Below are positions 37,931 to 64,000 of a stretch of DNA of 64,000 nucleotides, one piece after another (positions within the stretch are counted from its first letter, which is position 1; each line of letters starts with the position of its first letter). The stretch comes from Glaucostegus cemiculus. Lineage: Eukaryota. The stretch covers positions 28,768,001-28,832,000 of the forward strand of contig CDPCPM010000056.1 of the NCBI GenBank assembly GCA_976551045.1, read 5' to 3'. Both the position numbers and the translations under genes were made by a program. The notes under the pieces were generated by a model. The model was given only the letters and a program-made list of their open reading frames with translations, did not search any database and had not been told where the DNA came from.

Positions 37931-40044
37931 GATAGAGATTAACTACAATAACATCACACCACTCCCAATCTTCTCCCCCTCCCAGCCCTTCCTATCATGG
38001 CAGAATTTCCTATCTGTCAAAGCAGGCAAGTAATGACCAAACATGAATGATATCACTCAAAAAGCTGGGGGCCAATTGTCAGGTTATCAGCAATGAGTCA
38101 AGGTGAAAGTGAAGAGAAAATTATCAGAAAAGTTTTATGTCCACATATTAGTCATTATTTTTGCACAATATCTATACTAATAATCAAATTGGACTCTAGT
38201 GTCAGGCAAATTGCTTTGGATTGAGGCTTCAACAACATTTTAGGGTTAGTGATTGATTTTTGTATTTTATTACCGTGTATTCCAGTTTCAATAACCTTTC
38301 TAACCTGGGATTTTGCCTCTGTAATTTTTTAAGTACTTCAAAGGTACAAAGGAGAGTGTTTTATATTTACTAGATTGAATGTTTTATTTGACTGATTAGT
38401 CTTTGGTGTGTAATTATACTCTTCTCCAGTTTGAAATCCTGCAGATTTCACACATTTCAGATATAATGTGGAGACTCATATGCTATTAGGCTAATAATGC
38501 ACAGCAGCTCTGTCTAGCATGTGTTGTCCCAATTCAGGTTTTCAATTACTTCACCCTGTTATTAACTACAAAATAAAAGAACTTGTACTTGAATGGTTCC
38601 TATAGGTCCTTAAATATGCCGAATTTCAAGAGGTTGTATCATTGGTGGAGCAAACTAAATTCGAATTGTGCAGCCTGGGTTCTCTCACATTATACTCTTT
38701 AAATGTTCTTAGACAAAAGAAAGCTTAAGCCTTCTCATCAAGTACCATACAATGCACCTTGCCAATCATTGCGGGATAAGCAGATCTTTAGAGTTTCATT
38801 TTATTCAAAGTTCAAACATAGTCTTGTGGAAGAACAACATTTCACTGCCATTACTTGCACGTGGAATATGATCAAGATAAAAAGAAAGGGATTTTCAACT
38901 TTAATTCCTGGGCTTCTATTGATTTGTTTAGGACACTGTTTAAAATTAAACAGAGCATAAGGCAGGATGCGTTGTCCCATGTTTTTATTCTTGGATAAAG
39001 TCTATACCCAAGAGAAGTTTAGGTCACCTCAGCTATAATCAACAACACTTGCTAAAAATATTCATAAGTATCAAATCAGGACAAATATTTCTTCAGAATC
39101 CTGAAGTTATGACTTAATTGCTGTATTCAATGGCTGCAGGTGATATCTACCGTTCTTTTTCTTTAATCAGGGTTAAGGCAATATCCAAATATGAACATTT
39201 TATTTCTATGTTTCACTTTATTTTGAGGAGAATGCACATATTATGTGTATATGGAAATGTGGGAAGTTAACTATTTAATAATGTTACATGCTGACTCTTC
39301 TTGTGCACAAGTGGGAGAGAGTTTCATTTGACAAGAACATCAGCTAAGTCATTTGCACACTTGGACTCTTTGCGATAGACAGGACAGCGTGGGCTGATTC
39401 CTGGTTAATATTCCCAGTACCACTCTTCTGGAGAGCTGATAAATTCATAAGTTACCAATAAAAGACTAAACTAGATACTAAGTGAAATTGTATTTGTAAA
39501 TATGCATTTAGCAGGCAGATGTCTGTGCAAATAATTAGGTTGTATAAACTGCAATATAAGATAAATGTAACTAATACATATTTTACTTACAGTGAAAATC
39601 TGTTTTTGTTAATCTGGTTATGAATTATTGGTGGAAATTTCAACCTTGTTGCATGATAAATGATTATATGAACTCGCTGTCCATTTTGCTTCTCACCCAA
39701 CTTTCCCATTCATTTAATGGAGAGAGAAAATTGGACAAGGTATTTAATGAGCAGTTTTTCAAATGTCACCAATTTTGTACCCCAGCAAAGTCAACACTAC
39801 TGCAGTGTGGAGTCGCTTTTAAATTTTGGTAGACCATCCTACTGAGCATTCCAATAGATCAACCATCCTGGAAGCAAAAAGCTAAGGGTAGCAAATTAAC
39901 ATCCTGATGAAGTTCATTGCCACCTAATACTAAATGGCCTCGAGGAGAGCCTGAGTGTATTTGCACAAAAGTCAAAGGGGACTTACCTGTCCTGAACCTC
40001 TTCAACTCTCCTGACCAGTTTTTGCCTCCTTCTTCTTCTTTTTA

Positions 40045-41430
40045 AAGAAGGGGTTTTTTTCTGCTCAGGGCCGAGGATAACTTATTTCCGCTCCAGTACA
40101 GGGGATTCTGTGAAATCTGATGAGGTACCCACAGATTCTACCACAAGTGGGGCAGAAAGAGCCTGCTGGGGTGGAGGGGTGGGTAGCTTGGTAGGGATGG
40201 CCTCCTTCTATCATACGTGCTGGGCTTCTGTATGCTCCCGAAAATGAGACTGGAGGTCTCACTGCCATCCTGAATGCTCATTCATCATTTCAGTCATGGG
40301 CCAGGGATCCCCATGAATTGGCTGCAATGTTACACTTTTGAAAGAAAGGTTTGAGAAGATCCTTGAAACACTTCCTCTGTTCTCCTTTGACAGGGCTCGG
40401 AGGGCTAGCTGAGTGTAAAGAGTCTCCGTGTTGGGAATGTTGGCCTGGGAGAAGATGTTGATATTTGTTTGCTAATCCTGCCGATGGACTTGGAAGACTA
40501 GGTGTCATCTTTCTGGTATTTCTATGTAGTCCTTCCTCAGAAGCTTATGAAGAGGGTGGTCATCAATGCCATCAGGTAGATTACGAGCTTTGTACCAAGT
40601 TTGAGGTCTTGTTCTCAGATACTCTTTTTGCCAGACAGCCAAAGGCTGTGCTGTTGAACTGAAGGTATGGTCATTTTTGTCACTGATGTCTGCCTTCACT
40701 GAGATGTGGCTCCCAAGGTGTGAGAAAGGGTCCACATTGTCCAGGAAATCATCATGGACCTTTATTCTCAGGGTCAATATGTTACATAGTGGGGAGAGAT
40801 TGAGAGATAAGATAAGATAAGATCTTTATTTGTCACATGTACATCAAAACACACAGTGAAATACATCTTTTGCATTGTGATTTTAGGGGGCAGCCTGCAA
40901 GTGTTGCCACGCTTCCAGTGCCAACATAGCATGCCCATAACTTCCTAACCTGTACATCTTTGGAATGTGGGAGGAAACCGGAGCACCTGGAGGAAACCCA
41001 CACAGACACAAGAAGAATGTACAAATTCCTTACAGACAGTGGCCGGATTTGAACCCAGGTCACTGGCGCTGTAAAGCATTGTGCTAACCACTAAGCTACC
41101 ATGCCATCCATGGATCTCTGCTTTGCAAGTTTGGTATTCCCATAAGTGTTAGTGACTAGGTTAATAATGATTGAAGTTCCACTTCTGAACACGTGCTTAA
41201 TGAAGCTTCATTAGTATACAACAATTCATTTCCTCAGGTTGGAGTCACCTTGATTCTGAGTGGAGCGACATAAATTGAGCAGTTTCTCATTTGTCCCACT
41301 CCATCAGGAACCTCATTGGAGATAAGCTGAAATATTATAATGTAAATGATTAAGTCCTGGGACAATAACACAGCCTTGCTTCTCCACATTGTGATTGGGT
41401 TGGTGCAGGACTTGCTGGTTAACATTATGG
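40045..41430 (-). mobile_element. Degenerate RTE-clade LINE 3' half, interrupted by a V-SINE
   Basis: Minus frames: KQGCVI, LDNVDPFSHLGSHISVKADI, GEQRKCFKDLLK..KCNI...WGSLAHD, CPTCGRICG. Confidence 0.85.
40805..41105 (-). mobile_element. Full-length V-SINE with (TCTTA)n tail, nested in an RTE LINE
   Basis: Minus-strand A-box TAGCTTAGTGG, B-box GGTTCAAATCC, V-domain and the same tail as 7126-7365. Confidence 0.92.
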
Positions 41431-44400
41431 TTTGCAGGCCACCGTTGCAATTTCAGAGGACCTGGTGAATTTAACTAGTTGAAGAGAACACTCCACCATT
41501 ACCATCCTAAACTAAGACTCAACCTCCATTGATCTTTATTTACATATTTAAAGGTTCTTTAGCCTGAAATGCCTTGGTGTTTGGATTACCCAGCAGTTGG
41601 TTCCTCTTAAAGTGGCACCAGGAAGTGTTGCTTTCTTCTGGAGCTTTAACTCCACACCCGATTTTCGGACCGCTACCAGCTCTGTAAATTTTGTTTTCCA
41701 GAGGTTAAGATCGGCTCCCTGACTAGTTACATTTTTATTTAAAATTTCACCTCGGGATTTTTTTGAATAAATTAAAGCTAACGCGTTTAAAGCATTGTGA
41801 AACAGCCCTGTATGCGTTGTGAATGTGATTTTGTCAAAAAGACTGTTTCATGAACGTTTTGACCTTATTTATTTAGGAGAATGTTGCAATGTTATTTCCC
41901 GTGAAAGGAAAACAACCCAAAGCCATCAGACTCATGATGTAATATTTTTGTTAGGAAGAACTACCTCCAGCAAACGTTTAATTAAATGAAAAGCATTTGA
42001 CCCGCAGCAACGCGCTTATTTTTTTCCAGTCTAGTACCGAATGGGGATTTTTATGGTAACATTTAAACTGTGACACAGGCCGGGCATTCGCCAGTGAAGG
42101 AGGGAGGTCGCCAGCAGAGCGTGGACCCGAAAGATTGCAGTCTACCCTCTGGGAGACCCCACAAACATCGGCCTAACATTTATACTTGCAGCGAGTCCTC
42201 ATTCTCGGACCACAAAAGAAAAGAACGAAACCGCAGAAAGGTAATGAGCGGTTTGTTTTGTTTTTGAAAAAAAAGATTGTAAATCGTAGCTGAGTTAAAG
42301 AGAACTGGACACCCCCGACCCTGTGGCCATTTTTTTTAAGAAAAGAAAGATTCCGATGGTTTTTCCAGTTGTACAAACAAAAATAAATGTCTCCACCAGG
42401 AATTATGTAGAAACAAAACATGGAACGAAAATGTACTTGGGCCACTGACGCAGAATGACAGAGGAGAAATGAATCATTGAATCTCCCCAAGCCGGGCAGC
42501 CGTGGTGGGTTGGAAGCACAATTAATGGGGAGAGGGAAGACTACAAACCTCAGGATGGGCATGGAAAAGGCACAGCCGGTTGTCATCTGGGAGAAAAAGC
42601 AAAAGCATTCAGCAACATAGCACCATGATATGGAAAGAATCGCAGAGTATATATGCTTAGTAAGTCGGTGATGCTCCACACAGTATTTGTACGACATGAC
42701 TTATTGGTTTACATTGAACTTTTCGCCTGCCGAAGCACCGGGAGTCCCGTTCACTTAATAAGAAGCGACGTTTTTTTACAGGCGGTAATGGCGATTTATG
42801 TTCTTCTGGTCTTATATTCAATAACATTCGAAGGTTTTGGTTAGAAATAGTTATATTTGTTTTATCTGGCCAGAAAGAATGGATCGGGCCTCTGTACTGC
42901 CCGGCGACACACTGCATGCCTTTTTGTATTCTTGCAAAAGCGTTGATTAATACCTTATAATTTTCAGACAATAATAAATCTCGGCAAAACAAAATCAAAC
43001 AGTAAATGACAGGCATCGGATGTTTTCTTTTTTGAGAAATCACTCAGTTGTTTTCTCCACAAGGAACTTAATCCCAACCGCTGTTTCTCAGGGAGAGGAG
43101 TTATGTGCAGAATGATACATGCGTTTTTGAGTGCTACAACTGGTCAGTGATAGATGTTGATAGGAGTTTACTCTAGCCTTGGCAGGCCAAGCTATTGCAT
43201 TGGCTGTTGTGTGCGCATCTGGAAAAGTTATTAGGATCCAGGCACAGGGGCACAAGTAAAGCGAGGCAGACACCAATCACTCTTCTAAATAAACATTAGT
43301 CTTAAAAAGTTTGCACTTTTGACCTCAACCATTGGATTGCGTTTATTTCTGTAAAACCACGTCGTTTTTTTCCCCCCTGCGCAGCCTAAATATTTTTCCT
43401 TGGCAGTGCATTTCATTTTTCTGAATATTTATTTAACTCTTCTGGTTCTGCTCCCCACCTCACCCCTCACTGCCCCGCTTCGGGGTCTTTGCAACAGAAA
43501 AATGTTAATTTTATACATGCAATAACCGCAGTCCCTCCACCCTTCCCAGCTACCCATTCACTACATTTTATATTTTAAATACGGCGGAAGTGTGTATATG
43601 TGCTAGTCCATTTAGAAGTGAAGGGGAATAGCAATAAATCAAAATACAGGGGTCGGGTCTGCAGTAGGTTCGAGCGGTGTTCAGTTGCCTGAAACGTGTT
43701 GTGAATTACAACCCGGGCCGGTTGGAAAAAAAAGCCTCATTAAGGGTTTTAGGTTCACGGAGCGGGATGGCAACTACACTCCTCAACGAAAAACACGAGG
43801 TGACATTTGGCGTTTGTCAGATGTTGAACCTCGCCCTAATGAGAACACATGAAGGTGGCTGTTCAGGGATTTGAGTTGTTAGGTACTATTAGCTTTTGTA
43901 ACCTGGGTAAGCATTTCATTTAAGTGATATTGACGCCATTAAAAGTAACCGCACCGGTATATTCCCCGACAGAACGATTAATATTGGTGAAGAAGTAAAC
44001 ATGGGTCGTTTTGAAGTGATGATATAATTTCGTAATGTAAGTAGTTATAAAATTACAGGCCAGGAGTGACGGTTAAAACAATAAGATTCGCTGGTTAAGT
44101 AAAGGCAAGGTTTGTTTCACTGTATCGTGCTTATAAAAATTAATCTGCTGAACTGTGGACTGGGATCCGAAGATTATTAATTTGGGAAGGGAAGATGCGC
44201 CGTGTGCCGATAATTAACAAATAAAAATATGGTATAATCTCCGTTGCTGTGTACTATGTTTATAGCAACGTAAAACTGATCTCACTATCTCTGGCAAAGC
44301 AACACTCGATCGCCAGAGTTTTGAATGTGGCATCAGTTCCGCAAAAAAAATCACAACTAGGCCACGTGTTATTTCTTGCAGTCTGGAATGTGTTCGGCGA

Positions 44401-46214
44401 TATTTGATTTGCTGGTACTGTAGTAACTTGCTGTTAACGCTGTACTAGTACTTCAGGCGAGAAAGCCAAATACCACATATGTAGCAGTTTCCGTACTGTT
44501 TAAAGAGTATGTTGCGCTTATCTTATTATCAGTCTTACTTATAAATAGATAATATCTGGACATTGTCCAAATGGTCTTCTCGAGTGCTCTTGTGAATTTC
44601 TGATCAGTGTCTTCTGAATTCCAAAAACGATCATTTTGTTCGAACGAATGATATTTTAGAAACCTGACAGCTGACAACTAAAAAAATCCAGATTAAATAA
44701 TTTGCAGAGGGGCTTCAGGAAATATTCGGATTTAAATCGTTTCTCCTTTTACAGAAGCTTAAATAATGCAGCGTGATTGCTAAAAAGCGAGATCCGTTCT
44801 GCACCGCAACAGATCTGCTTGACCGGTGGGAGCCTTGAAAACTAACAGCCACAACACTAGTTTTGTGAAGGAAAGTGCTGAACTACAGATTGTCATTTAA
44901 GAACATACCTCTTCATACTTTGATCGCTAAATATTATTTCCCCCAAGCATCGGTGAATCAGACAAGAGACAAAATGCAAAATATGAAGGTTAATAAAATC
45001 GAAATTTTCTCACTGAAAGTAAAATCGGAGCACTGTGTATCCGAAGTTTATTGCAACGCTCAGTGGTTGGTCGGTTCGTTTCAGTTAATGGCCTGGCTGA
45101 CTTAAAACTGTCGAGCAGATTGTTAAAGCGCGATAGTGCCGCTTTAATACGTGAAACGTATCTAATTTATTTGAGAAAGATTTTGTCTTAAGATCACTAC
45201 AGTTACTCAAAGAGACGGCCGCAGCTGCGATCAGGTTGAATTACCGTTAATTGCGAAGGTCACATGTTAAACCCTTTCAGTCATTAGTTAATATCTCTGC
45301 CCTTACACTGCACATTTGGTGACTTTTTTTTTCAAGCACGAACCACACACAGTCAACCGCTTCCAAGAATGGATTAGACCAAGTATTGTCTAATCCATTC
45401 CTTCGGTTGCTGGCACTGATGCTGAAATACAACTGTCTAACCTCCCGACGCGGGTCCAGATCGGGATCAATTTGTTCTTTCGCATCGGTGGGAAACCGAT
45501 TGCTGGAACTGTGGAAGTGTAAGAGTTACCGTCTGATTCACAGAAGACAGCTCTTTTAAATAATCGTTCACGAAAAAGCTTCAAAATGGTATAAACAAAG
45601 AGGATAGAAAAGCAGTAGAGCCACTCCAGAGACACTCTGGTGCAGACATTTACACACACTGATAGGCACGCTCTACACTCAATTACACATACGGATACGC
45701 GCCAATACGCAACTTTATAAACGGCGAGCAGGTACAGATATTTCACATATTTGGTCCACTTTTACGGGGGGGAGGGGGGGAGGTGAGTGCTGGAAACATT
45801 CAGCCGCCCGACAGCCACTGCGAAGGCATCAAGTCGATGATATTCCGGTTCTAACACAATGCCATGGGTCTTAAACATCTTTCCTCTCTCCGCAGATGCT
45901 GCCTGACCAGTTGTGGTTACTCCCTGGTTGTATTTCAGATCTCCAGCACCTTTGTCCACAACTTTTTCGGCACAGAAATTGATATTGACATTTGGCACAT
46001 AGATGCAAAAAATTAACACACGTACGGATAAGAATAGAAATACATTTTTACGCTGGTATACACACTGGTACGGACACTTAAAGACTTCCATGGATACCTG
46101 GTCGTTATTAGCGTTCACAATGCACGTCGCATACTACCATTTTAACTCACCACCATTACAGAAGGTTGCGTGGCCTGGTCAGGGGTTTATTTTAAATGGA
46201 TTCAGAAACTAAAA

Positions 46215-46400
46215 AGGGAAATGCTGGAAATCTGGGATAACACAAAAGGGAAAATACCGGAAATGTCCAGCAAATCAGGCAGTATTTGCGGAGAAAGAAA
46301 GTGGATTATCATTTCAATTCTGACCCGAAATCTCTCTCTTCTCCAGAGGCACTGGGTGACTTGCTGAGCACTTCCAGTATTTTCTCATTTTATGTTAAAT
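46215..46400. mobile_element. Short palindromic Penelope-derived element
   Basis: ATGCTGGAAATCTG...CAGGCAGTATTTGCGGAGAAAGAAA and ACCCGAAA...GACTTGCTGAGCACTTCCAGTATTT. Further single arms at about 37190, 45880, 46410, 47390, 48000 and 53225. Confidence 0.7.
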
Positions 46401-46859
46401 AAAAACAAGACTCACTGGAATCTTTCAGCAGATTAGGCGACCTTTGGGGACACGGAGTATTTAAGGTTTCAAGGTGATGATAGTTTATCTGTCGTTTCAA
46501 TGTTGCTGGAGGGCTTAATATTAGTTAAAATATTTATTGAAGCCGTAGAAACTGGCGTATACGTTTATCAACTGATCCCTGATGTCTAATTGTTGTAAAT
46601 TTTAAAAAAGTACTATATCCGTCTTGTGAATGCCAACAATTGATTTAGTCCTTTGGTTGGATAGGGTAGATTTTCAGTTATACATCATGAGGTATAATGT
46701 GTAGATTATTATGTAGTTTCATCATTTTCCGTGGTACTTTGTTGACCAAGATACTGGTGTGAGAAAACTTGCATTCTGACTTGATGTTATATATGTGTAT
46801 TTTTGAAGTCTTTTCGTTCTATTATCCTGTAAGCAAAAGAGTGTATTAGAAGCCCATCA

Positions 46860-47170
46860 TCTGGTGACTTTGGGACATTCTGGACCATACAGCCAACAAA
46901 ATACCCTTGACGTGAAATCGAAGTGAACCATTTGATTTGCGACAACCAGTTTGCACGCAGCAAGCTTCGACAAACAGTTTTGTCATAATAACCAGATAAT
47001 CCTTTTTAGCGACGTTGATTGAATGATATGTATAATTCCCTTGCCCATCTTCCAAATAGTGCTTTTCTTACTTCCACGTGGGAAGCTAGATCGACCTTGG
47101 TTTGTCATCACATCCGAAAGTTGACACTTTTGTCAGTGCAGCACTCGCGGAATACTGCACTGGAGCGACC
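46860..47170 (-). mobile_element. Deu-domain SINE (SacSINE1/AmnSINE1-like), CpG-retaining copy
   Basis: Reverse-complement landmarks CATCCGAAAG, CAGTGCAGCACTC...TACTGCACTGGAG, ACCAGATAATC and TTGCACGCAGCAAGCT. Confidence 0.75.
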
Positions 47171-47526
47171 ATTTCGATTTTAAGCGATTTAAGACCATAA
47201 CTAGATGGATATTTATATAATAAAATAATTATGTCCATAAAGCCCACAGAATCGATGAATATATTTAACTGCTTCAGAATCCCCTGGTGTTTTTGTATTT
47301 ATATACAGCCTGATATCTTTGTAATTATATTCAATTAAAACGCATGGAAGTGTGAAATAAGAAATGAGAGTCGAATTACAGGAACTGTATAGCAGGTAAC
47401 TCAACATCTGTCAGGGGAGAAAGGCAGCGATGGAAAAGCTAACATTCCACGCGAGACCCTTCATCAGAAGCGATAAGCATGTGTATATTTCCATTGGTCA
47501 GATATATTAACGATTAATGCTATGTC

Positions 47527-47923
47527 ATCAAAGACCCCACCCAGTCGGGACATTCTCTCTTCTCTCCTCTTCCATCGGGTAGAAGATACAGGAGCCTGAG
47601 GGCACGTACCACCAGACTTAAAGACAGTTTCTACCCTACTGTGATAAGACTACTGAACGGTTCCTTTATACAATGAGATGGACTATGACCTCACGACCTG
47701 CCTTGTTGTGACCTTGCACCTTATTGCATTGCACTTTCTCTGTAGCTGTGACACTTTACTCTGTACTGTTACTTTTTTTTTACCTGCACTATATTAATGC
47801 ACTTTGTACTAACACAATTTAACTGCACTGTGTAATGAATTGACCTGTACGACCGGTTTGTAAGACAAGCTTTTCGCTGTACCTCGGTACAAGTGACAAT
47901 AATAAATCAATACCAATACCAAT
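47527..47923 (+). mobile_element. Rex1/Babar-type LINE 3' end (CpG-intact copy)
   Basis: Translates IKDPTQSGHSLFSPLPSGRRYRSLRARTTRLKDSFYPTVIRLLNGSL, typical of the Rex1 ORF C-terminus. 3'UTR stem-loop, AATAAA and (CCAATA)n tail. Confidence 0.85.
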
Positions 47924-49498
47924 ATGTGCTTGTGGGGGAAAAAACTCAGAAAATTCCGGGGTAGGGGTGGACTGGGCGTGGAGGAGAACACTATGGATCA
48001 GTAAACTCTCTGGAGAGAAAGAGAAACAGAGTTAACCTGTCTTCAGAAGCTGTTATTTTTCTGTGACCGTGTCTATACTTTGTATCCACATCACTAAGAG
48101 AGAGACGGAAAAAGTACAAGATAAAGGTAAAGCTCGCTCACTTCCCGATTCCCTGAACACCTTTCAGAAAAGAATACCATACGCGGATGCAAAAATAGTA
48201 CATCTCCGTGCAATTCATATTAAAGACTCTACAATCTGAACATAGAGACCTGTTTGAAACGAGGCCGTTAAATCCCTTTTCTACAAACGCTGAAAACTTT
48301 CTGAAGGAAACATAAATTCTCAGTTTATGATCCTCGTTGGCAAGATAGAAGGTTTTAATCGTGTCTTTTGGTGGTTACTGGGGGACGGTCGGATATGAAA
48401 AAGGTTAGAAAGTAAACATTTCTTCCAAACACTGTAAATGTAGCGAAGCTCTTCGAATTGTATGGCATCTAATGTTTATTAAAGTATATATAACACGTTA
48501 AATTGGCGATGGAATAGAAGTACACTGTTGAGAAAATATTTCGCATATTCCATATGCGAAATAAAGTGTCCTAAAAAGGAGACGCATAAGGGCTGGTGAT
48601 TTGTCAATGTGAATCTATGTAAGTATATATGTAAGAATGAGTACTTGAGTTTAAACATATGATTGTGTGCTTGCGTGATCATATTATTGGTTATGAGATT
48701 TGTATAAAATCCCAATCTCCGTTATACTGAGTATTTTCTGTGAAAACATTAATAGCTGCTTGAACTTATTCCAGAATTAGATCCAGAAGATGAGAAATCC
48801 AAGCGTTCGATGACGTGATGCAGGCGGGTGCACTTCATTTGCGCGAAGAATTAAGATGAAACCTGCAATAGTTTCGGAATCGTCTTTCTTTTGGAAGTAA
48901 TTTTCTTAATAAAGCCAGCAAATATCACTTGTATGTGTAGTAGCTGCACTTTCGAAGTCCTAGGATTTTGGCGGTAGGATCCTTTTTTTTCCCTCTCTTA
49001 ACTGCAAAAGATTTTTTTTTACTTAAACTATATATTTAAGTGATGCTGCTGTATAGACAGCATCTTCACATTTAAAAGGTTCTGCAAAAATTATTTGGCC
49101 CATTTGGCGGAAAATGTAACAACGTTGCTTTTATTCTTACCAGGTTTGAAGAACTCCAACACATATGATGGCATTTGATTTTTATTTTAAAGTACACTTG
49201 CTCTAAAATACGATGCGTTGTTGTGTCCTCGTTTTGCACATGGGGGAAACTCTTGGAAAGATCATTGCCCTTTGGAAGAAGGGGGTAGGAACGTGGATCC
49301 ATACAATTCTGCGAGTAATGCGCTTGTACTTATTTTGCAGGTGAAGTCATTTTATCGGACCAGACAATACCAGAGTGAAGTATTACTTTCCAAAGGACTG
49401 GAAAGAACTACAGTTAGAAGAATCTCTTTGGGGGTCGTAAGGTTAAGCCAATCTCAGACAAATGAACGATCAGGGGGGTTCTAAATGTGCCAAAACAA

Positions 49499-49793
49499 GG
49501 CAGCGCAAGTGGCGTATCTAGTAGAACTGCAGCCTTACAGTTCCGGCGACCCGCGTTCAATCCTGACCTCCCGCGCTGCCTGTGACTGCATTGGTTTCCC
49601 CTGGGTGCTCTGGTAAAAGACCTGTGGGTTGGTCATTGCAAGTTGCCCTTAGTGTGGGTAGGTGGGTGGTAGAATCTGGAGGAAGTTGACTGGAATGTAG
49701 GGAAAGTAAAAGAGGATTAATGTAAATGGATGCTTGATAATCAGCGCAGACTCGATGGGCCGCATGGCCTGTTCCCGTGCTGTGTGGTTCTAT
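49499..49793 (+). mobile_element. HE1-type V-SINE with CR1/HER1 tail
   Basis: tRNA-like head (GTGGCGTATCTAGTAG..., GTTCAATCC), partial V-domain, tail GACTCGATGGGCCGCATGGCCTGTTCCCGTGCTGT shared with CR1. Confidence 0.8.
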
Positions 49794-52700
49794 CTCCCAA
49801 CAGAACCAGAGCTGAAGACAAGTTAGAAAACTCAGAACTTCTTTATGTTTAACTAGTTATGGAAAACTATTTTGCAATGTTCTGCACATTTTAGGGGAAA
49901 AACTATTCATAGTTTCTTTACCAAAACACCAACATGGGTAATAAATTAGTGCACAATTTGTCTTCTATCGAATAGGTTTTCATTCCGATTATTAAACCCA
50001 TTGAGGGTATTGGTTCTTGAATTATGGTAAACGATAGTTATTCGCATACTTCGCAGTTTTATATTTAATGCGATTATCAAACGTTGCCAGAACCCCCGGA
50101 TTCTTTTTCGTGCAATTTACAGATAATTGGATTCCATTCAAATTTTGTAATCCCGGTACATAAGATGAACACAAGGTATCAGTACACTGCGACCCTCTGA
50201 AATTATTTGACACATCTTCAACAAGAACAAATCATTCATTCGTCGTTTCAAAATGAATGACATTCTATAAAAATGAGTGCGAAACTTAATCGCATGGAAG
50301 GTTTTTGAAACCATAAGTCGCACAGGTCGTGCATTCTTTAAGCATCAATTTTCGTCCAACTCAAACCAGAAGTAAAAACAGCCGTTGAGTTTATCAGTGA
50401 ACACATTTAAAAACACAAATACTTTTGTGAGATCATTTGGTCATAGAATAAGTGTACCGGAAGCAAGTGAGTTTTACGAGATCAGATCTGCCGTGTAAAC
50501 CTGCAACACATTTCTCAGTTATACCAGGGCAATACCCATTCTACATGGTTAGATAACTCTCGCAGGTGTCTGCCAATTTGTCTCGGCAAGTTGAAAACAT
50601 ATTAAAAAGCAGCCTCAAGTTGAAATCTTCTTTGTCGCACGCTGTCAATATATTTAAGAAAAGTTAAAACATTAGAATGTAACAGTGTGAACTGGAATTC
50701 TGAACCCCTTGAATATTAGCATATTTGTGAGATGAACAACCACTTTCTAAAATAAATACTTGGTGGTATTAAGGCTGAACGAAAGTCACCAATTTGATAT
50801 GTAAATATAAGGACTTTAATAAATTGTTTTGAGAAGGAGGCGCATTGATTCCTTTTGCAAAAAAAAATCTCGTTTTATTTGCATGAAAGTTAACAACTCA
50901 AATGCTGACATCGGTTTCAGTTTCCGATTGCAGGTCATACTTGGAAAGAATCATCAGAGAAAACATGACAATGATCTTTGTCATGGTATTAAAATGAATT
51001 ATTCATCCAAAGAATGTTTCTATAAATGTAGCAGGCCGCACTAATCAACAATCAGGCTGTAAAATTTAAGACACTAAAATAAAAGAACAAACAATGAACA
51101 ATATATAGAAGATTAAAACATTTCTTATCTGACTGACCCTCCGCTCCTTTTCATCAGAGTAACTTTCTCCGAGGTACACTTTCTCCGTTCCTTTTACCAC
51201 CCTACTCTTTTGCTGACAATCATTGCGAGAATCCAATGACATGTCGTGTCACTGCGTTTACGCACCACAAGCTCCAACCCCACAATAATCGGTGTACTTG
51301 GACCACTCTCTTCACCATCTGAGCAGGAATCGAACCCATGCGATTTGCATCTGTTTTGAATTCACATAGATGACAATAATAATCTCAGGATCAAAGAAAA
51401 ACCTCTCGTTAGGAGTAAACCCAACAGCTGTTGTAGAAATTATTTGTTCTGAAATTTTATCGGGTTATTGAAAGCACAATGTCACCTAAATGCAACACAA
51501 CTTTGGCGGTGTGGGATTTGCTTGCCAGATGTTTTCCAACGAAGAACAAATATTGCGGAGTTGTCCTGTTTTGCAACAGTGCGCGTCGTTTTCATCCCGC
51601 TCATTTATCTGTACTCTCTTACTTATCAATTAACATGATTTGTCTTCATTAATAATTTTGGCCAGTTTACAGATGAACAAGATCCAAATCATTGTTTGGC
51701 AAGCAACGGCTCTCGGAAGGAACCTCCGAACCCACCCCCCACCCCGATTTATTGTACAACCTCATTGACCATATTCTTGAAATGGAAAACAAGTCTCATA
51801 TTCAGTTAAAATAGACCATATATTTCAGAAAACAAAAAGCGTTTTCATGACGCAACTTTAAAGCTATTCCTGGATACGTGGATACAACACCTTATCCTTA
51901 TATTCTAAACCGATAGATGTTAAGTTAGATGTTCTAAATGAATTATTTAGTTAGATATTAGACGTTCTAAATTAATTATCCTTATATTCTAAATCGTTAG
52001 ATGTTAAGACTTGGTGACAGTAATAATGATATAACATTACACATAGTAACACTATAGTAATGCTAGTTCATACAAGCCATTTATTAGTTGGTTGGTGTTA
52101 ACTAATCCTGATGGTACATTTGATATCTCCTTTCACGCTGTAAGTAGTTTAACGATTTAAGATATTTTTGAACGTGGGACACACATTTCTAGTTTTAAAT
52201 CCAATAATATAACAACTCACGAAATTGTTATTGATTGTAAATTTAAAAAAATATGCTTAACGTCTTCAAACACATTTACCAAAAAAACCCAGAAAATATC
52301 GATCAGAATTGGAAAGAACGCAAATGACATTTCCCCAGTTTTCTACCAAAAATATTTGCATTTCATTTAAATATAAATTACACCCGCTTTATACTATTCT
52401 TTAAACTTAATCATTAATCTCAACCGTATTCAAAACTTAACGGAGCAATGAAGAAACTGACACGTATATGTTATAGATCTCACTAAAACGTAGGTTAATA
52501 TGTTTGTTCTCTGATCATTGTCCCGACGTGGGCAGTGAGGCTCACAAAATGCCAACTAATTGAACACAATGTTCAATTCGAATATACTTCTACTGTTTTA
52601 CGCATCAGTATAAAACCGGGAGTTTTTAACTAAAGTAAAACACACACGCCTAATCAACACCGAATTCATTTTTTAAAATCCCGTGAATTAAGTAAAAGGC

Positions 52701-55037
52701 AAAGCGATCGAAATGGAAATGGCAAGGGTAGGAAACTCCTAATTCTGTAAACAGATGATAAGCTGTACGTTTGCCCGTATTTACTTGGGTTAAAACAGTT
52801 CAACATTCAGAGCCCGCGACGACCCATTGAACAATAACTTGAGATTTATACAGCCTATTACAAACAGGTACTGGTTCTAGACGGGTTTATTGCCGTAGCT
52901 GCAAATAATCCCATATTAACGTGGCCTTTAAAAGATTTATGTTGAAGATGAAAGCTACCATTTCGAGTGTGAGGCTTCTTGCTGTGCAAACCGCAAATGT
53001 CCTGTATGTCCGCACTATTCCAGTTGTTATGCAAATGGTGTAAGGACAGCTCTTGATGTAGATTATTTGTAGACTATATTCAAAGATAAACAAAAGAAGC
53101 TAGGCCGCGACACTTTACCTGTGAGGACCCACAGAGTTTCATAATGGTCGGTGTACATTTTAAGTAACCGCCCTCGAATGACACAAACCAGCTATCATGT
53201 TAACTCCTATTATAAAACCAAAATAGTGTAGATGCTGGAAATCTGAAATAAAACAGAAAATTGTTTCCATGCCACATTAAATTATCGTTTTTACTGTATT
53301 TTCACTCTGCAGAATGTTACGTCGGTCAGTTTCACTGTCCAGAAAAAAACACAATCGATCAATTTTTTGATAAAGAAATCTGCACTACCGGAACACTTCC
53401 TTTAAAGGGAAGCTTGAAATAAAATCCAGAAGTTTTCTTGAAAAAAACTGACTTGGTTATTTTGTTATGTGTTTTTATCCCGGTTTAGCTCTTTACAAAC
53501 AATAGGATGGCCATGACAGCGGGAAAACTAAGAAAAAATTAAAATACTGATAGATTTGATTTTGATGTTGAATTCCATTTTAGACAGGCCCAGCAGATGG
53601 ATAGCGCATTTTCATTAGAAGTGTTCCTTTTATCCTGTGGTTGAGCCGCGAAGATTGTCTTCATTCCTTTGCCAATTAGTCCAAATTATGCGGCCTCAAT
53701 GTACAGGCTAATGCCAATAATTAAAGACAGTCCCACTGACATCTAGAAAACTGAACCACATTTTATCGTCATCAAATGTTTCAAAAAGGGATACCTTCGG
53801 GTAATGAGCGTGTCAGAAAACCCCTATGTAGCAAAATTGCAACTTGTACACAATCCCGGCAAATGAAAGAGCCTTGCCACGCTAAGTAAAACATGGTAGT
53901 TGGCAAACCTTTAAAATAGATAGATTGTCCGTCTATTTTATCCTGTGGAGCGGATCTTCGAGTCTTAAACAACCTTTGTACAGGCAAAGAAACACAAAGA
54001 TAAAAGACAACCAACTGTCTGAGGGAAGATCGCTTTTCAAAAGCGAATGTGTGAGCTGGGCCTGAGACCGCTCGCTGGGAGTCATTTATTCAGGACGAGG
54101 CATTATCAGCAACATAAACAAACTAGACGGCCTTTATGTGGATTACAGCAGATACAACGCTTCTGCAAATTAGCGGTGTCCAGAAAATTGTATCCAAAGC
54201 GAGAGCTACCAACAAGACCGTTTATGAGGAGCTGGAAAGAAGCTGTTCCAAACAATGCCATCGGATTAACAAGTACCAGCAAGACTTCAAAACTATCTCC
54301 AGCTTCTAAAGAACATAGTAATCAAACGCACAGGTGAATTGAAAAAAAACTAATTCCAGTTAGTCTTTATGTTTGGAGCGAATGAAGTGTTTTGCAAAAT
54401 GTATGAAACTTTCCTCTGACGCTCTATTGCTAACCCACTTAAAAATAAACAAAAACCTTCAATCATTTGCTGCACTGTGCATGGATATCTTCTGAAACGT
54501 GTTCAGCACATCTGATAAAATAAACAGACAAGAAGAAAATAAAATTACCAACTCTTAACACCTCCTTATTTATGGGCACCCTGTTTGTTCTTTTAGTTTC
54601 ACTTCTAAATTGGAATATAGAATTTAAAAATGGTCCAAATGCCGCTGTAAACAACTGCAATGTCTATATCTTTTAAGTATATTTATAATTGTACAATTCA
54701 CTCCTTAATTTTATCAACACCTATCTCTTCGTAGAATTGAAATGAGGCCTGAGTCTTCACTAGACGCTGTTGATTACAACAGTGTTACTTACATAATAAA
54801 AATTATGAACTATTCGAGTAAACCATGACACGTTAACTTTGTTAGAAAAATATATTATCCGAATGTGATCGCATATATAAAAAAACAAGAGGGCGTTGTA
54901 TTATCGCCATTATTTTATCCTGTAAAAATGTTATGAACCATAGGCCCCAAATAGTTACTTGAAACTATGTTTTAAGTTTTATGAGCAAATATTATGTACA
55001 AATACATGGGAAGGCATATTTTTCAGAGTTAAAAACA

Positions 55038-55043
55038 TTTATT
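55038..55043 (-). terminator. Candidate distal polyadenylation signal of FOXD2 (AATAAA)
   Basis: tttatt on plus, about 540 nt downstream of the stop codon. Confidence 0.45.
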
Positions 55044-55263
55044 AATTTACACCAAACGACCTGATGGACATTTTAAACATATAGCACTGCATTGTTCACA
55101 GACTTTCCTCGTAAAATAGATCGATGTACAACCAACGAGACAGCAGGCAGGAGGTGTGAAAGTTGCACATCTTTCCTATACCTATATACAAATAATTACC
55201 AAAATAAAACCCATAAAACTAGACAGTTAGGGACTAAAGGCAACAGAAATGTTAGAAGATTCG

Positions 55264-55269
55264 TTTATT
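55264..55269 (-). terminator. Candidate proximal polyadenylation signal of FOXD2 (AATAAA)
   Basis: tttatt on plus, about 310 nt downstream of the stop codon. Confidence 0.4.
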
Positions 55270-55579
55270 AATTCTCAGTTCACCATTTTCTTCCTAAATC
55301 GCGTATTTTACATCAAAAATCATTTTAATAATCCTGAGGGTCCCTAACCGTCCTTTAACAGTGCCTAAACAGTATAGTGGATCAAACTGTTGGGAAAAAA
55401 ATAACATTCAGTACAGACAGCACTAGAAAGTATGACATTAAGAATTCAATATTCCTCAGGTATCTTTACATATATACATACGATAAATATATCTTGTCTT
55501 TTCTTCCAGAGCAGAAGCATACTTTTGTGGTTCCAAATATTCAAAAGGTATAATTCCTACCTTACACGGGACGAGAAAT

Positions 55580-56638
55580 TTAATAGTGACAGGTGTTAAG
55601 ATTTGTGAGTTTACTTGAAAAGGTCTGTCCAGTCTGTAGAACATTTTCATGCGTTAAGTTTAGAGGGTTCTGCGACTGCGTGAGTGCCGGAGTTAACATT
55701 GCCAGGACCTGGGCTTGGCTTCCAGGCGGAGCCGAGTAGGGGGACCCGGGGGCATTTGACGGAGCAGCCCCTATGATATTGTCTATAGAGAAGGAAGGCC
55801 TGGACTGGCTCGGGTCTGCTTTCAATCCTTGCAGGTTGGGTAGAGTGGGACTCAGCTGCGGGTAGAAGGATTTCCTGGTTAAGTCGTTGCTGTGTAAAAG
55901 CGAGGGAATGGCTGAAGTTGGGAACATTGACGCTGGAGATGGCACCGTACAGTGTGGAGGCTGGAATGGGAACGTACTCGGTGAGGCATGGTGATGAGGG
56001 TGGTGGAAATTCTGCAGCTGGATGCCATAACCGCAACCATAAGGTCCATATCCAAAACTTGGCATGAAGCTGCCGTGATCTCTCAAGATCTCGGACGGCT
56101 GCTGCCTTTTGAACCGTTTCCTCCTCCGAAGGAAGCTCCCGTTGTCAAACATATCTGCAGAATCGGGGTCGAGGGTCCAGTAGTTGCCCTTGCCAGGATT
56201 CCCGGGCTCCCGAGGTATTTTCACAAAGCAGTCGTTGAGAGACAGATTGTGTCGGATGGAGTTTTGCCAGGCAGGAAACTTTTCCCTGTAGTAGGGGAAA
56301 CGATTACTGATAAACTCGCAGATTTCACTCAGTGTTAGTCTCTTCTTTGGACTCTGGAGAATGGCCATAGTGATCAGAGCGATGTAAGAATAAGGAGGTT
56401 TGACCAGGGTACTTTTGCACGGTTTGTCACTTGCCCTGGTTGTACTTGGGTCAGACACGCCGGACAAGTCCGGCGACTCAACGTTCTCGGAAACGTTTCT
56501 GCTTAAGTTATCGTCTGAATCATTGTCAGAATGAAAATGACCATATTTCCCTTCTTTGCCGTTCATATCACCGACCACATCAATATCTGTATCCTCGGAG
56601 AGCAGTGAATGATCAGACATGTCGGCACCTAGAGTCAT
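55580..56638 (-). CDS. FOXD2: Forkhead box protein D2 (single-exon, 352 aa)
   Basis: Intact ORF with a class D forkhead domain ([30 protein letters not shown]...[35 protein letters not shown]...[10 protein letters not shown]), an N-terminal acidic EDTDIDVVG motif and an eh1 motif FSIDNIIG. The N-terminus ([29 protein letters not shown]...HSDNDSDDN) and C-terminus ([13 protein letters not shown]...[13 protein letters not shown]) match my recollection of amphibian FoxD2 better than FoxD1, D3 or D4/5. Confidence 0.93.
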
Positions 56639-56920
56639 TGTTGAAGTGATCGGCCCAGTGTCTTCAATCTTTCTGTCGGTAGCAACTCTCCAGTCTCTCA
56701 GACCCCCTAGTGGAGTGGCTCAGAATGGCCAAGGGGAGGAGAAGTCGGTATCAGAGAGCCCGCACTCCTTTCCAAAGGATCCTTAGTCTCTCGCTTCCTC
56801 ATCGACCACTTTGCAGCTTCTTGCCCCTTTAGTTTGATACCGCCGCTCCCTGACGCAGACAGTGCACATGGGTTGTATGCGATTGCTCGGCCGCCCGACG
56901 CTTGGAACAAAGTTTGTTTT

Positions 56921-56928
56921 TTTATATA
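56921..56928 (-). promoter_or_regulatory. TATA box of FOXD2 (TATATAAA); predicted TSS near 56895
   Basis: Plus-strand tttatata reads TATATAAA on minus, about 285 bp upstream of the ATG, within otherwise GC/CpG-rich sequence. Confidence 0.65.
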
Positions 56929-56979
56929 GAAAGAAAACTTGGCAGAGCCGAGCCAGGCTGCGGAAGCCTCTTCTGCTCC

Positions 56980-57037
56980 TCAATCTGCTGTCAATAGACA
57001 TTTATCCGACAGGGGGCGTCACGTGGCCGTGACGTAA
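56980..57037. promoter_or_regulatory. FOXD2 proximal promoter motif cluster (TALE site, CTCF-like site, E-box, CRE half-sites)
   Basis: CTGTCA (TGACAG on minus) near 56987. CCGACAGGGGGCGT at 57006-57019. Inverted repeat CGTCACG-tggc-CGTGACG at 57017-57034, overlapping CACGTG and TGACGTAA. Confidence 0.55.
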
Positions 57038-58000
57038 GGGACGAGCTGGGCTCCCTCTCGGAGATCAGCCCCGGGCTCTACTTAAAGGGAGACCTGACAG
57101 GGGTCACCAGGGAACCAGAGAAGGACGTTCAGGCTTCCGTCCTAACAGTGTGCACAGCAGCCAACAACTCAGCCTGAAATCTGTGCTTTTGATTGTCACC
57201 TTAATTTGCATTTTATGATCTACAATTTTCTGTATTTCTTTTTTTAATGTGTGGTTGTGCTAAGATAATGCTTTCCAGAACGCCCGCACCCAGCACTTGT
57301 TCCTTTGTGCTCTGTACATTGACATCCTATGCAGTAACTGGACGGGTGAGAGGTTCAGCAGGCACTTTGTTGAAACGTTCATGAATTACTTTTTTTTAAA
57401 AAGTTTAAAAGCTCTTCCCTCCCCTTCGGAATGAAGGCAATTTAAAAGAAGATGCGTGCGTTTTTTTTAAACTAAAGCCGACAATTCGGCAACACACCTT
57501 TCACTCACTGGAGAATTTATTAAATGATGCTCTTGTCATGTTCTGTCTAAAGTAGCAATTGTAATGTGCATTCAACTAATGTTTTACGCCAGTTTTTTTT
57601 AGGCCAAATTATTCTCTTTTTTTTAACACATAGGTAGTGGTCCTATATTAATAGATAAAGCAGATGGCTCGGTTTGGCAGCAGAGAAAGGGTGAGTGGAA
57701 ATGGGTCGACGCGCACTCAGTGGGCCGAGGACCTATATCCATACTGTACTTCTTTAGAATTCGTTAAGTAAAAGTACAAGATATTTATCACTTCAAACTT
57801 GTCGAGCCTCGCCGCAGCAGCACACAACACAAGAACGCTAGAAAAGAGGAGCAGGATAGCAACGCTAATTGCGAGAGAACACGAAACAAGAAAGGGACCC
57901 AGAGCACTAAAGGGAGCTGACAATCTGTTTACTTTGAGCTTTTCACCACATCTACTCTTAAGAGTGCTCAGAAAATAAATCAACTACAGGTTTATTCTTT

Positions 58001-58062
58001 AGGGGGAGAGGTAGAGAGAGAGAGGGAGGGGGAAAGAAAGAGGGAAAGAGAGAGAGAGAGAG
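58001..58062. repeat. Polypurine (GA)-rich tract upstream of FOXD2
   Basis: About 60 nt almost purely A/G, ending in (AG)n. Confidence 0.9.
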
Positions 58063-60629
58063 ATGACTAAACTATGCTTCGCTTTTCATCTCGAGATCCA
58101 TCTTTTGCAACCGCGCAAACACAGATTTGGTTATGTGGATGATTTTTACACATATATATTTAACCGCATAGCAAATAACCGGAGATAGGAATATGAATTA
58201 TCCTTTTTCATGATTTCCGTCCCAAAACTCTAAAAATGTACTCACACTCAATTCCAAACATTGACAGTCTTTGACAGGTCGCCTCGGGGTGAGACTGACA
58301 GCCATTCACATGTAACTTGCTGTGCGTCTATTGAATTCTTCCCACATCCAAGTCTCAATATCGAATTTTACAATATCACGTAAGCGCTCTTTTTATCTGG
58401 CCAAGTACCAAGAGCACGTTATGCATCAAGGAGAATGCTTCCTTTACCACCACGAACACCGATCCTGCTATTTTTTTTCCTGTTCCCATTCATCAAGATT
58501 TTACTAAAACGAACATCGTTGTAAAAAAAAAACAGGTAATTCCACACTTTATTAGATATTGCACATTGTCACAGCTTATCCGATAGATGTCTGAATTACT
58601 GTATACATTTGTAAGAAGGTAAGTAGCTACTAATGCTTGCTAAGTTTCCTTAGTTGTTTAATAAATCAGCGTGTATCATTCCAAAATATTATATTACCCA
58701 AAATATGTCACAACTAAGGCAATATGCTCAGCATTTAGACGACTTCTTTTTCGAGTAACAAATCAGTTATGAACTTTAGCTGCATACTGACAATATTTAA
58801 GAAACATTTATTACTGGTGCTTTCAGCTGTGTAATGTTTATAATTTCCCATTGAACATATATTTTTCGATGTGTTTATTGTACTTGGGGTTTGTACAGTT
58901 TTGAATGCTTTGTTAAAATGACTGGCCTGATTTCACCGATTAACTTGAAGCAAAAAAATATCGAAATGCACTATTTAAAAAATGTTGCAAGTGAAATAGC
59001 CTGTTCTGCTCTGGATTTAAGAATATGAGGGAGGGGGCCTGAGCACTGAAGGGCAGCTAAGCACATTAATAGTCGTCTTGACGCTCTGCTGCTTCACAGC
59101 AGGTGCCTGGATGACTTTCACTCCCTGATTTTTCTAGTAAGACGGTAGCAAACATAGTCAAACAGCTGTCAGTTCCAAATGCCACACAGTCTTCAAATGC
59201 CCAACAGTTTGTACTTTCTAAATGGTTATCTCCTGTCCAAAGTGCGTTATAAGCACATTGAACTACATCCAAGCTGATTTAAATTCAGCAGAGAGCCGAG
59301 CGCAGGCTCCTAAAGAAACGGGGAGCTCGTAAACCAAGAATAAGGATTATGACAATATCGCTAACAATATTAACTATATAATCTTCTTGGGTCTAATTAC
59401 CCATATGTGGGCCAGCCATTCCTTCAATGCTTGCACGAATGGAAGCGGACACCTCAGCCAATCATCTACAGGCTATCCAATAAAACCCATCTCTTAAAGT
59501 ATGATTTAATTTGGAGGTAAAACGATATTAAGACCATATACTCGACAATTTAAAAAAAATTATTTCCTCTTCTTAATCTGTTAAATTTGGGCCTATTTAT
59601 AAAATCTAATGATTTTAAACCACACCGGAAACCACATTAATCCTGGTGTTTTTATTTAAATAGGCAATGTGGAATAAGAACTGGGTGTGATTCTGTGCAG
59701 AATTTTACGAACTGTTCTGGTATTCGATCACACCAAAGGAGCAAAGGTCATTCCTAAAACTGCGAGCAACAGCTCTCGCTTCAGTCTTAGTTATTTTTTT
59801 TTAGAAAAAAACACATTTAGTTTTCTGCTAAAATAGATTTATTTGCCTCAGTTTTATTAAGGAATCAACCATGTTTTTACCTGGATCTATTTCACCAAGT
59901 TGAGGTGAAACTATCCCAACGACACTGAAATTTCTCTCCACCGTTAACATCCAACAGGGGCTCCCCGTGGTTTGGGAATCCTGGTAACCTTCTGCTTCCC
60001 TTTGTCGCTGCAGATCACGCTCTGTGGATGGAACACGACACGGCTAACCTGCTGCAATCTCGCCCCCAAATTGAAGGTTCTGGTCGTAATTTTCTAATCT
60101 CCGTGTCAGTCCATTTAGCGAACCTGGCTGCATTAATAGATGAGCGTCAAACGCGCCACCTGCTGTCTGTTGTGGAGATGGAAAGCCAACTATCATCTTC
60201 AATATAATGAAAGGATAGTGAGACTGGATCACACTGTAACCTCTCCGTTACCTCATTCACTGTAGGTAGAAGAGGTCGCCAACCGAACATGACTAACTTA
60301 CCCTCTCCCAAATTCTTCTGCAAACTGCGAATAGAACACAAGACGTTTAAGATAAAGTCAAAATCGTCTATTATCCCTAATACATTCAAACACAAATTCT
60401 CAAACTAGTTTAATTTATATTTTTATTGATATACTTCACCAGTTCCGTAAAATAAAGACAGATATGGTCGCTGAGGGCCACTTGTCCAGTTACATTTGAC
60501 CAATCCCAGGGCATTGTTGGATTCTAAATCTGGCCACTTGCCATGATATGATTCACGCCTATATAGTGTAATACGGTGTTTTCCATTTAATATGGACCCT
60601 AAACATACAGAATGAATAACATGGAAACA

Positions 60630-61220
60630 TTGAAAATAGGAGCATAAATTGTCCATTTGACCCTTTTGGCCTCCACCATTTAACATGATCATGGTCGATC
60701 ATCCCCATCAGTATACTAATCCTGCTGCCTCCTCATTTCCCTTGATCCCCTTAGCATTAAAAAACATGTCTACCTCCTTCTTGATACCTACTTCTTGAAG
60801 ATACTTAGTGACTTGGTTTCTACACCTTTCTGATGTAGAGAATTCCACAGGTTAACTGACTTCTGAAATGTCTTCTTCTGCTGACGTGGGTTTTAAATGC
60901 AATATTCCATGTGCTACGGTTGTGACCCATGGTTCTGGAGTCCCCAGCCACTGTGGATATCCTTTCCTCCTTCTAGTTCATCTAATCCTGTTAGAAATTT
61001 ATAGCTTTCTATGAAATACCCTCTCTTCCTCTATACTCCCAAGAATATAGGACCCAGTCTCTCCTTATACATCAGCAGAAATCAGGTCTAGATAACCTTT
61101 GTTGAATTCCTTCCACAGAAAGAACATTCTTCTTCAAATAAGGAGACAGAAACTGCACATGATGTGATCTTACCAAGATCTGTACAGTGCAACAAGACAT
61201 CCTTGCTCCTGTACTTGCTT
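60630..61220 (-). mobile_element. Degenerate CR1 LINE 3' fragment
   Basis: Reverse-complement tail (ATAGGAGCA...ATCATGGTCGATC, CCTTGATCCCC, AGAGAATTCCACAG, AGGAGACAGAAACTGCACA). Confidence 0.8.
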
Positions 61221-63024
61221 CCTTAATAGCTGACATTGATTGAAGTGAGCCTGCACTTCATATAGGGAGGTGCTTTGTAGCAATGACCAGTGGTGGAAAG
61301 TTTTTCACAGGCTCTGGAAGCAATGCTTGGTGAGGGTAGGGGAACCATGAATTTGCAACACACTTCTGAAGGCCTTGGTTCTAAAGGTGAAGAGAAGGAG
61401 AGAAGTTCTCTTTAACAGGAGGGTATGAAGCCATCCAGGCCTATAATCAAGCAACGGTGAGGTAACAGACAAGGTCAATACTTAAGTCACGTACTAAGGG
61501 CATGGCTGCAAAAAGCTAATGATCTCATAGTAGTGACCAAAGTTACCAAGTCCCATTTTCCAGATATTGTATTCCTTGACTCAGTGGAGGGAGATAGGCA
61601 AGTCTGGATAGTGTGTGACCTGGATTCAACTAATACTGGCCCAGGCATTTAGGAGTTAGTTAAATCTTTGGGAGTCAGGAGTTGAGTAACTAGTCACAGA
61701 ATGTCTAGCCTCTGCTCTGCTGTTGTAACCATAATAAAAGGGCTGTGGATCAGTGGGGATGGCCATATCTCATGTTTGCCTCCCATATTGACCACTGACT
61801 TATACTTAGCTCTTACAGCCTTGTGACTCCCAGTAAATTAATGCTGTCACTGCCATAGACTTCCAGCAAAATGTAGCAGGTCCAAGTGGTGACTAGGCCA
61901 GAGCTGGTGGAAATCCTAATAGCCTTAATGGTCCCCTGACAAAGTGTGCTGCCAAAGGCCGTTCCAACTCTTTCTAAATGTCCTTGATGATAAAAAAATG
62001 TTAGAAACAGTGAAAATATCTAAATAATAAAAGTACCAAAAAGTTACTTACATTTTTCTTATCAAATAAAATATGATAAGTTTACCTAAAGTAATAGAAA
62101 TTAACTAATGTATTAATACTGACTAAAATAAAACTTCTTAAAAAAAAAGAAATTGTTTACCTTAACTTACTTTTTTATTGAATGTCAGCCCATATTCAAA
62201 TATGTGGGTCCACACATTGGTTGCACCACCAGCAACTGCGGGCATATAGCTGCAGAGCCAGATACGCAACTCACAACACTCACAGAACACCCACGGGCTC
62301 AAGTCCAGTCCTGGAGCGAGTAGTCAAATCTCCAGCTTGTTTCATACTCCTGTACGACAGTGTGCAGGTCCAGACACCCAAGGGACACTGAAACGCACTG
62401 ACTTGCACTTCCTTATGGAACCTCCAACTAGCTGTCAACATGATCATGCCAGTTATGTGAGGTGTTGGGTTGAGGGGAGGTCCAGTTAAATTTCTGGTCA
62501 ATATTGGATAATCACAATCTGGATACTGCTAAGATTATTCTATTGACTGACAAGTGGAAGCATTTAAACTCTACCTTACTAGAGATGGTTGTTGTCTGGT
62601 ACTAATACAGCTCCCAGTAAGGACTGAATCCATATAATTACCAGGATGCTGCAAGTAATGACAACTCATGAGGCCTACTCTGAAGTAAAATATAAGGCAC
62701 CCCTGATGCAGTCCAGTCTGTGAGGTCATAGTTTAAGTGCACCAATTGTCTGTTTGATGACATTGCACTGGCAGCATGATAGGAAAGTCCTCCCCTTGCA
62801 CACAATTAACTATGGCCACAAATTTCTTAGCTTCTGGATCTTTCCAGGTTGGTGCTGGAGATATTGACACTTGTACACAAGGTCCATAGAGGTGTCGGGA
62901 GTTGGGTGGTAGAGTATGGACCCTGTCTCAAGCAGCAGAGTATAAAAGATAGAGGGCACAGTGGTCTGATGCAAGGTGAAACTCCCAATTACCTGGTATT
63001 AACCATCAAGGCCTTCAATGGTCA

Positions 63025-63635: not shown

Positions 63636-63651
63636 GAGAGAACAACAATCT

Positions 63652-63956: not shown

Positions 63957-64000
63957 GGATTACAGGTCTAATAACAGAACCATTTGTGTTACCAATTCTT

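Follow-up and report, generated by a model that had tools for sequence, protein, structure and literature searches.

In a 64,000-bp stretch of the genome of the cartilaginous fish Glaucostegus cemiculus (contig CDPCPM010000056.1, positions 28,768,001 to 28,832,000; hereafter the window, whose own numbering is used below), the developmental transcription factor gene FoxD2 lies within an 18.9-kb block in which the decay of CpG dinucleotides appears to have been suppressed. We consider it highly probable that this block is a DNA methylation valley that, on an evolutionary time scale, has long been free of germline methylation. Since CpGs are known to be lost through deamination of their methylated form, the retention of CpGs points to a long-term lack of germline methylation. 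The gene is a single open reading frame (ORF) of 352 amino acids on the minus strand (55,580-56,638), and its product shares 92% identity with catshark FOXD2, 80% with coelacanth FOXD2, and 57% with shark FOXD1. By these sequence identities the ORF is FoxD2 of a cartilaginous fish, as a preliminary description of the window had proposed.

Extent and composition of the CpG-retaining domain

The domain (41,659-60,583) is AT-rich and repeat-poor. Its CpG observed/expected ratio (o/e) was 0.78, compared with 0.15 to its left, which is about five times the flank CpG level, and its guanine-plus-cytosine (GC) content was 40% compared with 37%. By segment, o/e was 0.15 in positions 1-41,649 (220 CpGs), 0.78 in 41,650-60,700 (587 CpGs), and 0.20 in 60,701-64,000, with GC contents of 37.4%, 39.7%, and 42.2%, respectively. 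The o/e of TpG plus CpA was 1.30 on the left, 1.12 in the domain, and 1.27 on the right, so that the excess of these deamination products was relieved inside, and GpC was flat throughout. Change-point analysis found a step at both edges, at 41,659 (95% interval 41,534-41,671; twice the log-likelihood ratio 588) and at 60,583 (95% interval 60,365-60,725), with no significant change point within the domain (permutation p 0.11). The preliminary description had reported a CpG jump at about 41,650 with no obvious rise in GC, and this left edge stands; its right end, given as 60.7 kb, moves slightly to the left. Its hand counts of 0 CpGs in 37,321-37,680 and 16 in 45,361-45,720 were reproduced.

The difference persisted after correction for GC. 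In GC-matched 200-bp bins, CpGs were in 2.6- to 8.5-fold excess inside the domain in all GC classes represented on both sides. Under classical CpG island criteria (GC of at least 50-55% and o/e of at least 0.6-0.65), the o/e of 0.78 is sufficient, but the whole-block GC of 39.7% is too low. GC-based island scans recovered 1,036 bp (Takai-Jones-type) or 2,755 bp (Gardiner-Garden-type) of the 19 kb, so that, in line with the earlier description, such callers miss most of the block. No tandem array was found in the domain, and repeats covered 3.9% of it versus 15.8% of the window's left flank. A rise in CpG at the window's right end was considered as a second CpG domain and rejected, as it is due to a copy resembling a short interspersed nuclear element (SINE) at 63,655-63,959, which kept 10 of its 21 CpGs (39% expected).

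Similar blocks at other Fox genes

Twenty Fox genes were examined, out of 28 Fox matches in the genome. CpG-retaining blocks were present at all 20, with sizes from 3.1 kb to 31.0 kb, GC contents of 0.38-0.48, and o/e of 0.72-0.88. The FoxD2 domain, ninth by size, is therefore ordinary among the Fox blocks. Repeats covered 2-4% of the sequence inside the blocks versus 16-25% outside. Against the genomic background such blocks were rare: among 60 stretches of 10 kb taken at even spacing along four large contigs, CpG o/e had a median of 0.20, and none contained a non-tandem AT-rich CpG block of at least 5 kb. The two top background values (0.59 and 0.60) came from a 189-bp satellite and a 4-kb GC-rich island. 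The satellite fills a whole 10-kb stretch (L119, G000:C14:2000001-2010000) with about 53 copies at 87% matches and, with an o/e of about 0.6 at 36% GC, mimics the composition of a valley.

CpG retention in repeats within the blocks

Repeat copies inside the blocks were compared with outside copies of the same family at similar non-CpG divergence, and ancestral CpG sites were defined using the outside copies only. In the FoxD2 block, the two repeats that could be scored retained 10 of their 14 ancestral CpGs, versus 2.7 expected. The larger of them, the 3' tail of a non-LTR (long terminal repeat) retrotransposon on the plus strand (47,525-47,924), presumably Rex1-like, kept 7 of 9 (28% in matched outside copies); a copy of the same family outside the domain (8,076-8,458) kept one of nine. 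The other is an old repeat fragment, SINE-like by eye (49,628-49,793), which kept three of five (3% in matched outside copies). About 550 bp beyond the left edge, a SINE-like repeat on the plus strand (40,796-41,112) kept 3 of 23 ancestral CpGs (42% expected); its site is skipped by the contig of a distant relative. Because the repeats inside keep their CpGs and the SINE-like copy just outside does not, CpG decay has likely been switched off inside the domain. Likewise, the preliminary description had seen in the domain a sequence record of long-term germline hypomethylation, and this is likely, given that the inside repeats escape CpG decay.

The same pattern was found in larger sets. Over ten blocks, all 22 scored repeat segments together kept 53 of 87 ancestral CpGs (19.9 expected), and the 14 that lie 500 bp or more from any edge retained 39 of 58 (12.5 expected). 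As a replicate, 11 segments in ten further blocks kept 37 of 65 (17.5 expected), two of the 11 sitting in a clipped neighbouring block rather than in the Fox gene's own. Also in the replicate, seven segments up to 1.5 kb outside the blocks kept 11 of 29 (8.3 expected), and two segments at block edges kept 7 of 28 (5.7 expected). Under the same pipeline, 313 control segments from the flanks kept 579 of 2,139 (636 expected), with one of the 164 that had at least five sites reaching p ≤ 0.005, and a second control set kept 312 of 1,126 (343 expected). Newly gained CpGs were in excess in the pooled sets (45 versus 16.5 expected, and 40 versus 18.5 expected).

Comparison with known methylation valleys

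DNA methylation valleys are regions of at least 5 kb with methylation under about 15%; Polycomb, with trimethylation of histone H3 lysine 27, occupies them when they are silent, and they form insulated chromatin domains that interact with themselves. Those described in PMC5806489, also called canyons, resemble the FoxD2 block in being large, lying over a developmental transcription factor gene, consisting mostly of non-island DNA, and having low CpG deamination. Table S2 of that source lists Foxd2 as a valley gene common to human, mouse, and zebrafish, and FOXD2 is among the human canyon genes named in PMC6085761. The broad non-methylated islands of PMC3583005 are likewise broad regions at developmental genes. 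Those of zebrafish, like the FoxD2 block, have a high CpG o/e with GC similar to their surroundings, so that island callers fail. As described there, these islands were profiled in seven bony vertebrates, none of them cartilaginous, and were associated with trimethylation of histone H3 lysine 27 at 45% in mouse and 89% in frog. In hyper-conserved CpG domains low CpG loss is read from sequence, as here, although these were defined from primate alignments; 146 of 190 lie within valleys (as cited in PMC5806489). CpG o/e has also served as a record of sperm methylation (PMC5793779).

We take mouse Foxd2 to lie on the minus strand near 114.579-114.582 Mb of chromosome 4, in which case a block at chr4:114,572,300-114,577,300 would lie downstream of it. 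In Table S1 of PMC5806489, Foxd2 is listed in 9 of 21 mouse samples, sperm and oocyte included, and the rows overlapping chr4:114,579,300-114,583,300 are exactly those nine, which identifies this interval as the Foxd2 valley. Rows over chr4:114.572-114.588 Mb reach 13-16 kb in somatic tissues of that data set, intestine, liver, and skin have the block at chr4:114,572,300-114,577,300 as their sole call in this region, and the outer edge falls at 114,572,300 in eight tissues (PMC5806489). Both parts of the Foxd2 region are called in the mouse oocyte rows (PMC5806489). Compared with the mouse valley, of which 5 kb is called in sperm (PMC5806489), the FoxD2 block described here is longer (18.9 kb) and uniform, with about 40% GC.

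As far as sequence can tell, the FoxD2 block has every defining feature of a methylation valley: it covers a developmental transcription factor gene, extends with its 18.9 kb well past the promoter, consists mostly of non-island DNA, bears the trace of low CpG deamination, and belongs to a gene whose orthologue is a valley gene. Existing methylomes of elephant shark, skate, zebra shark, and lamprey are described as pervasively methylated (PMC5437953, PMC10115646, PMC13047888, PMC10912607), and the word 'valley' does not occur in the main texts of these four papers. No published description of valleys in sharks or rays was found by title or opening of the abstract, a search that covered few subscription papers. 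Domains of this type are already known, and what is new is the probable occurrence of one at FoxD2 of a cartilaginous fish.

Origin of the CpG retention

Under the valley explanation, methylated CpGs outside the block would deaminate to TpG and CpA, whereas unmethylated CpGs inside would mutate at roughly the ordinary rate, so that o/e would drift up towards 0.8. By analogy with bony vertebrates, CxxC proteins, Polycomb, and TET may protect the block from methylation and hold the gene in a poised state (PMC5806489, PMC3583005). The block would then be part of the whole FoxD2 regulatory landscape, for which no single special anchor would be needed.

Divergence from two relatives, which is not raised inside the domain, favours the valley explanation. 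Contigs of relatives were aligned over 32,001-52,000, and divergence figures were taken from eight listed pieces per relative. The thin cover of 43-45 kb by the distant relative X19, a gap in its aligned sequence, was given no weight. Those of relative X1 match almost letter-perfect. Divergence inside versus outside the domain was 5.0% versus 5.3% in X3 and 7.0% versus 7.5% in X11. Bases in CpGs make up about 6% of the sequence inside and about 1% outside, and by our own estimate hypermutable CpGs would be expected to raise the inside divergence by 1-2 points.

The CpGs could instead be methylated in the germline and preserved by purifying selection as binding sites for transcription factors or CxxC proteins. 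Selection on the region is what the scarcity of repeats in the blocks would point to, but presumably neutral retroposon copies inside also retain their CpGs, and an inside divergence equal to that outside is difficult to reconcile with some 590 CpGs being under strong selection, which makes this explanation very unlikely. A trivial cause, such as a rise in GC, a tandem array, young repeats, foreign DNA, or a mis-join, has next to no probability. Young repeats and satellites do raise CpG elsewhere, as in the 189-bp satellite (o/e 0.59). For the FoxD2 block, however, GC effects, tandem arrays, young repeats, and a mis-join are ruled out by the GC-matched bins, the array scan, the low repeat cover, and a contig of X3; a mis-join is argued against because this contig (41,112-46,758) runs across the left edge. 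In addition, the arrangement of FoxD2 with its FoxE-type neighbour is intact, and the same pattern recurs at 20 Fox genes.

Several observations weigh against a germline valley. Higher conservation than in comparison regions has been reported for valleys, and the listed pieces inside the domain are no more conserved than the flank. Of the four repeat segments found in the FoxD2 block, copy numbers allowed scoring in only two, with 14 sites in all, and these two showed no excess of newly gained CpGs (2 versus 2.1 expected). The p-values of the repeat test are rough, as CpG sites were treated as independent. Among the mouse sperm rows of PMC5806489, only chr4:114,578,300-114,583,300 (5 kb) is called a valley. 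Finally, the valleys of that source are defined by measured methylation, whereas the FoxD2 block is known from its trace in the sequence.

The left edge and a possible downstream anchor

Relative to the FoxD2 ORF, the domain extends 13.9 kb downstream and 3.8-3.9 kb upstream, in agreement with the asymmetry of about 14 kb and 4 kb noted in the preliminary description, which had suggested that something non-coding near 42-46 kb may anchor the domain. A corresponding model has two units, the valley of the promoter and gene, and a separately anchored downstream element near 41.7-46 kb, predicted to be an enhancer cluster or the promoter of a non-coding RNA, that sets the sharp left edge. Just inside this edge, a non-coding patch (41,780-42,597) is a candidate element, as it is somewhat more conserved in X11 (4.0% difference versus 7.1%; the nominal p of 4e-5 ignores overdispersion). 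The X3 piece spanning the edge is the least diverged of its eight (4.4% versus 5.1% overall), and the edge itself has the narrowest interval (143 bp) among 40 Fox-block edges. The mouse block called alone in three tissues, which is downstream if our placement of the gene is right, and the similar skew of the FoxD1 block (10.5 kb downstream and 3.6 kb upstream) would also fit two units.

However, CpG is uniform across the FoxD2 domain, with no dip or internal change point, and downstream skew is common: the downstream arm is the longer one in 13 of the 20 Fox blocks, about 3-4 fold in five, FoxD1 included, with ORF ends as rough anchors in intron-containing genes. No CTCF-like motif of at least 11 bits was found between 15.7 and 57.0 kb with a CTCF matrix (also used for the motifs below), no Rfam match over 36-64 kb, no second genomic copy of 41.6-45.7 kb at an E value of 0.001, and no resemblance between 42-46 kb and the FoxD1 block. 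Comparison with the non-coding sequence of other Fox blocks gave only short, repeat-looking matches. In addition, conservation is equal or higher in a patch at 37.9-39.5 kb, beyond the block. We thus regard the two-unit arrangement as unlikely. A special anchor at 42-46 kb is weakly favoured by two observations, the more conserved patch of 0.8 kb near the edge and the mouse block with its separate call.

The CpG-poor sequence at 37,928-39,328, outside the CpG block, is a candidate conserved non-coding element. Its difference to the distant relative X19 was 9.8%, versus 17-20% in two adjoining pieces and 10% in a third of 109 bp, and the difference to X11 was 4.9% at 38,807-39,482 versus 7.1%. 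It is possible that the element is a FoxD2 enhancer.

A broader reading joins three propositions: the layout shared by FoxD1 and FoxD2 (about 4 kb upstream and 10-14 kb downstream) is older than the genome duplications of vertebrates; an independent conserved element at 41.7-42.6 kb, matching the mouse block, determines where the domain ends downstream; and in sharks and rays, which evolve slowly, CpG o/e by itself suffices to locate every germline valley, its edges being defined within a few hundred bases. That all three hold together seems rather improbable. If they did, sharks and rays would carry a record of ancestral Polycomb domains legible from sequence.

Neighbouring genes, motifs, and other loci

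A FoxE-type gene lies 36 kb upstream of FoxD2 on the same strand, within its own 6.1-kb CpG block; we take it to be FoxE3 by synteny. At FoxD2 itself, a TATA-like box of the presumed promoter (56,920-56,929, minus strand, putative) and two AATAAA signals marking candidate 3' ends (55,038-55,043 and 55,264-55,269, minus strand) were found by eye. One CTCF-like motif lies at the presumed promoter (57,003-57,021, plus strand, 14.2 bits) and another 430 bp inside the upstream (right) edge, oriented into the domain (60,151-60,169, minus strand, 16.8 bits). With one motif at the right edge and none at the left, no convergent CTCF pair flanking the domain was found. At the edges of ten domains, four such sites occurred in 40 kb versus about two expected (0.053 per kb overall), a weak enrichment. 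Minus-strand motifs about 0.4-0.7 kb from the upstream edge occurred in three of ten blocks (FoxC1-like, FoxD5-like, and FoxD2), again weakly enriched. An ORF of 310 amino acids at 35,685-36,617 is the reverse transcriptase tail of a long interspersed nuclear element, presumably CR1-type, and belongs to a high-copy repeat.

Elsewhere in the genome, a third FoxD1/D2-like gene of 314 amino acids (G000:C390:896933-917504, L035-L037) has two CpG blocks of 9.7 and 7.0 kb. GC and repeats at this locus are above those of the other Fox blocks, and a scan of the second block, which is downstream, found no forkhead ORF. Two ORFs that we take to be FoxG1-like (G000:C120:3130290 and G000:C241:12924693) have blocks of 31.0 and 19.5 kb, and two FoxA-like ORFs have blocks of 21-22 kb. 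A CpG-rich block of at least 9.6 kb (L153, G000:C54:16598001-16607600) lies about 20 kb downstream of a FoxE-like gene.

Implications

Knowledge of the valley mechanism is unchanged by the FoxD2 finding, which would extend the known Foxd2 valley to cartilaginous fish. It indicates that valleys in these fish are sharp-edged and can be read from sequence, and the repeat-retention test provides fairly direct sequence evidence for a protection acting in the germline. Such sequence evidence is useful for charting the regulatory domains of developmental genes in sharks and rays, for which methylomes are few.

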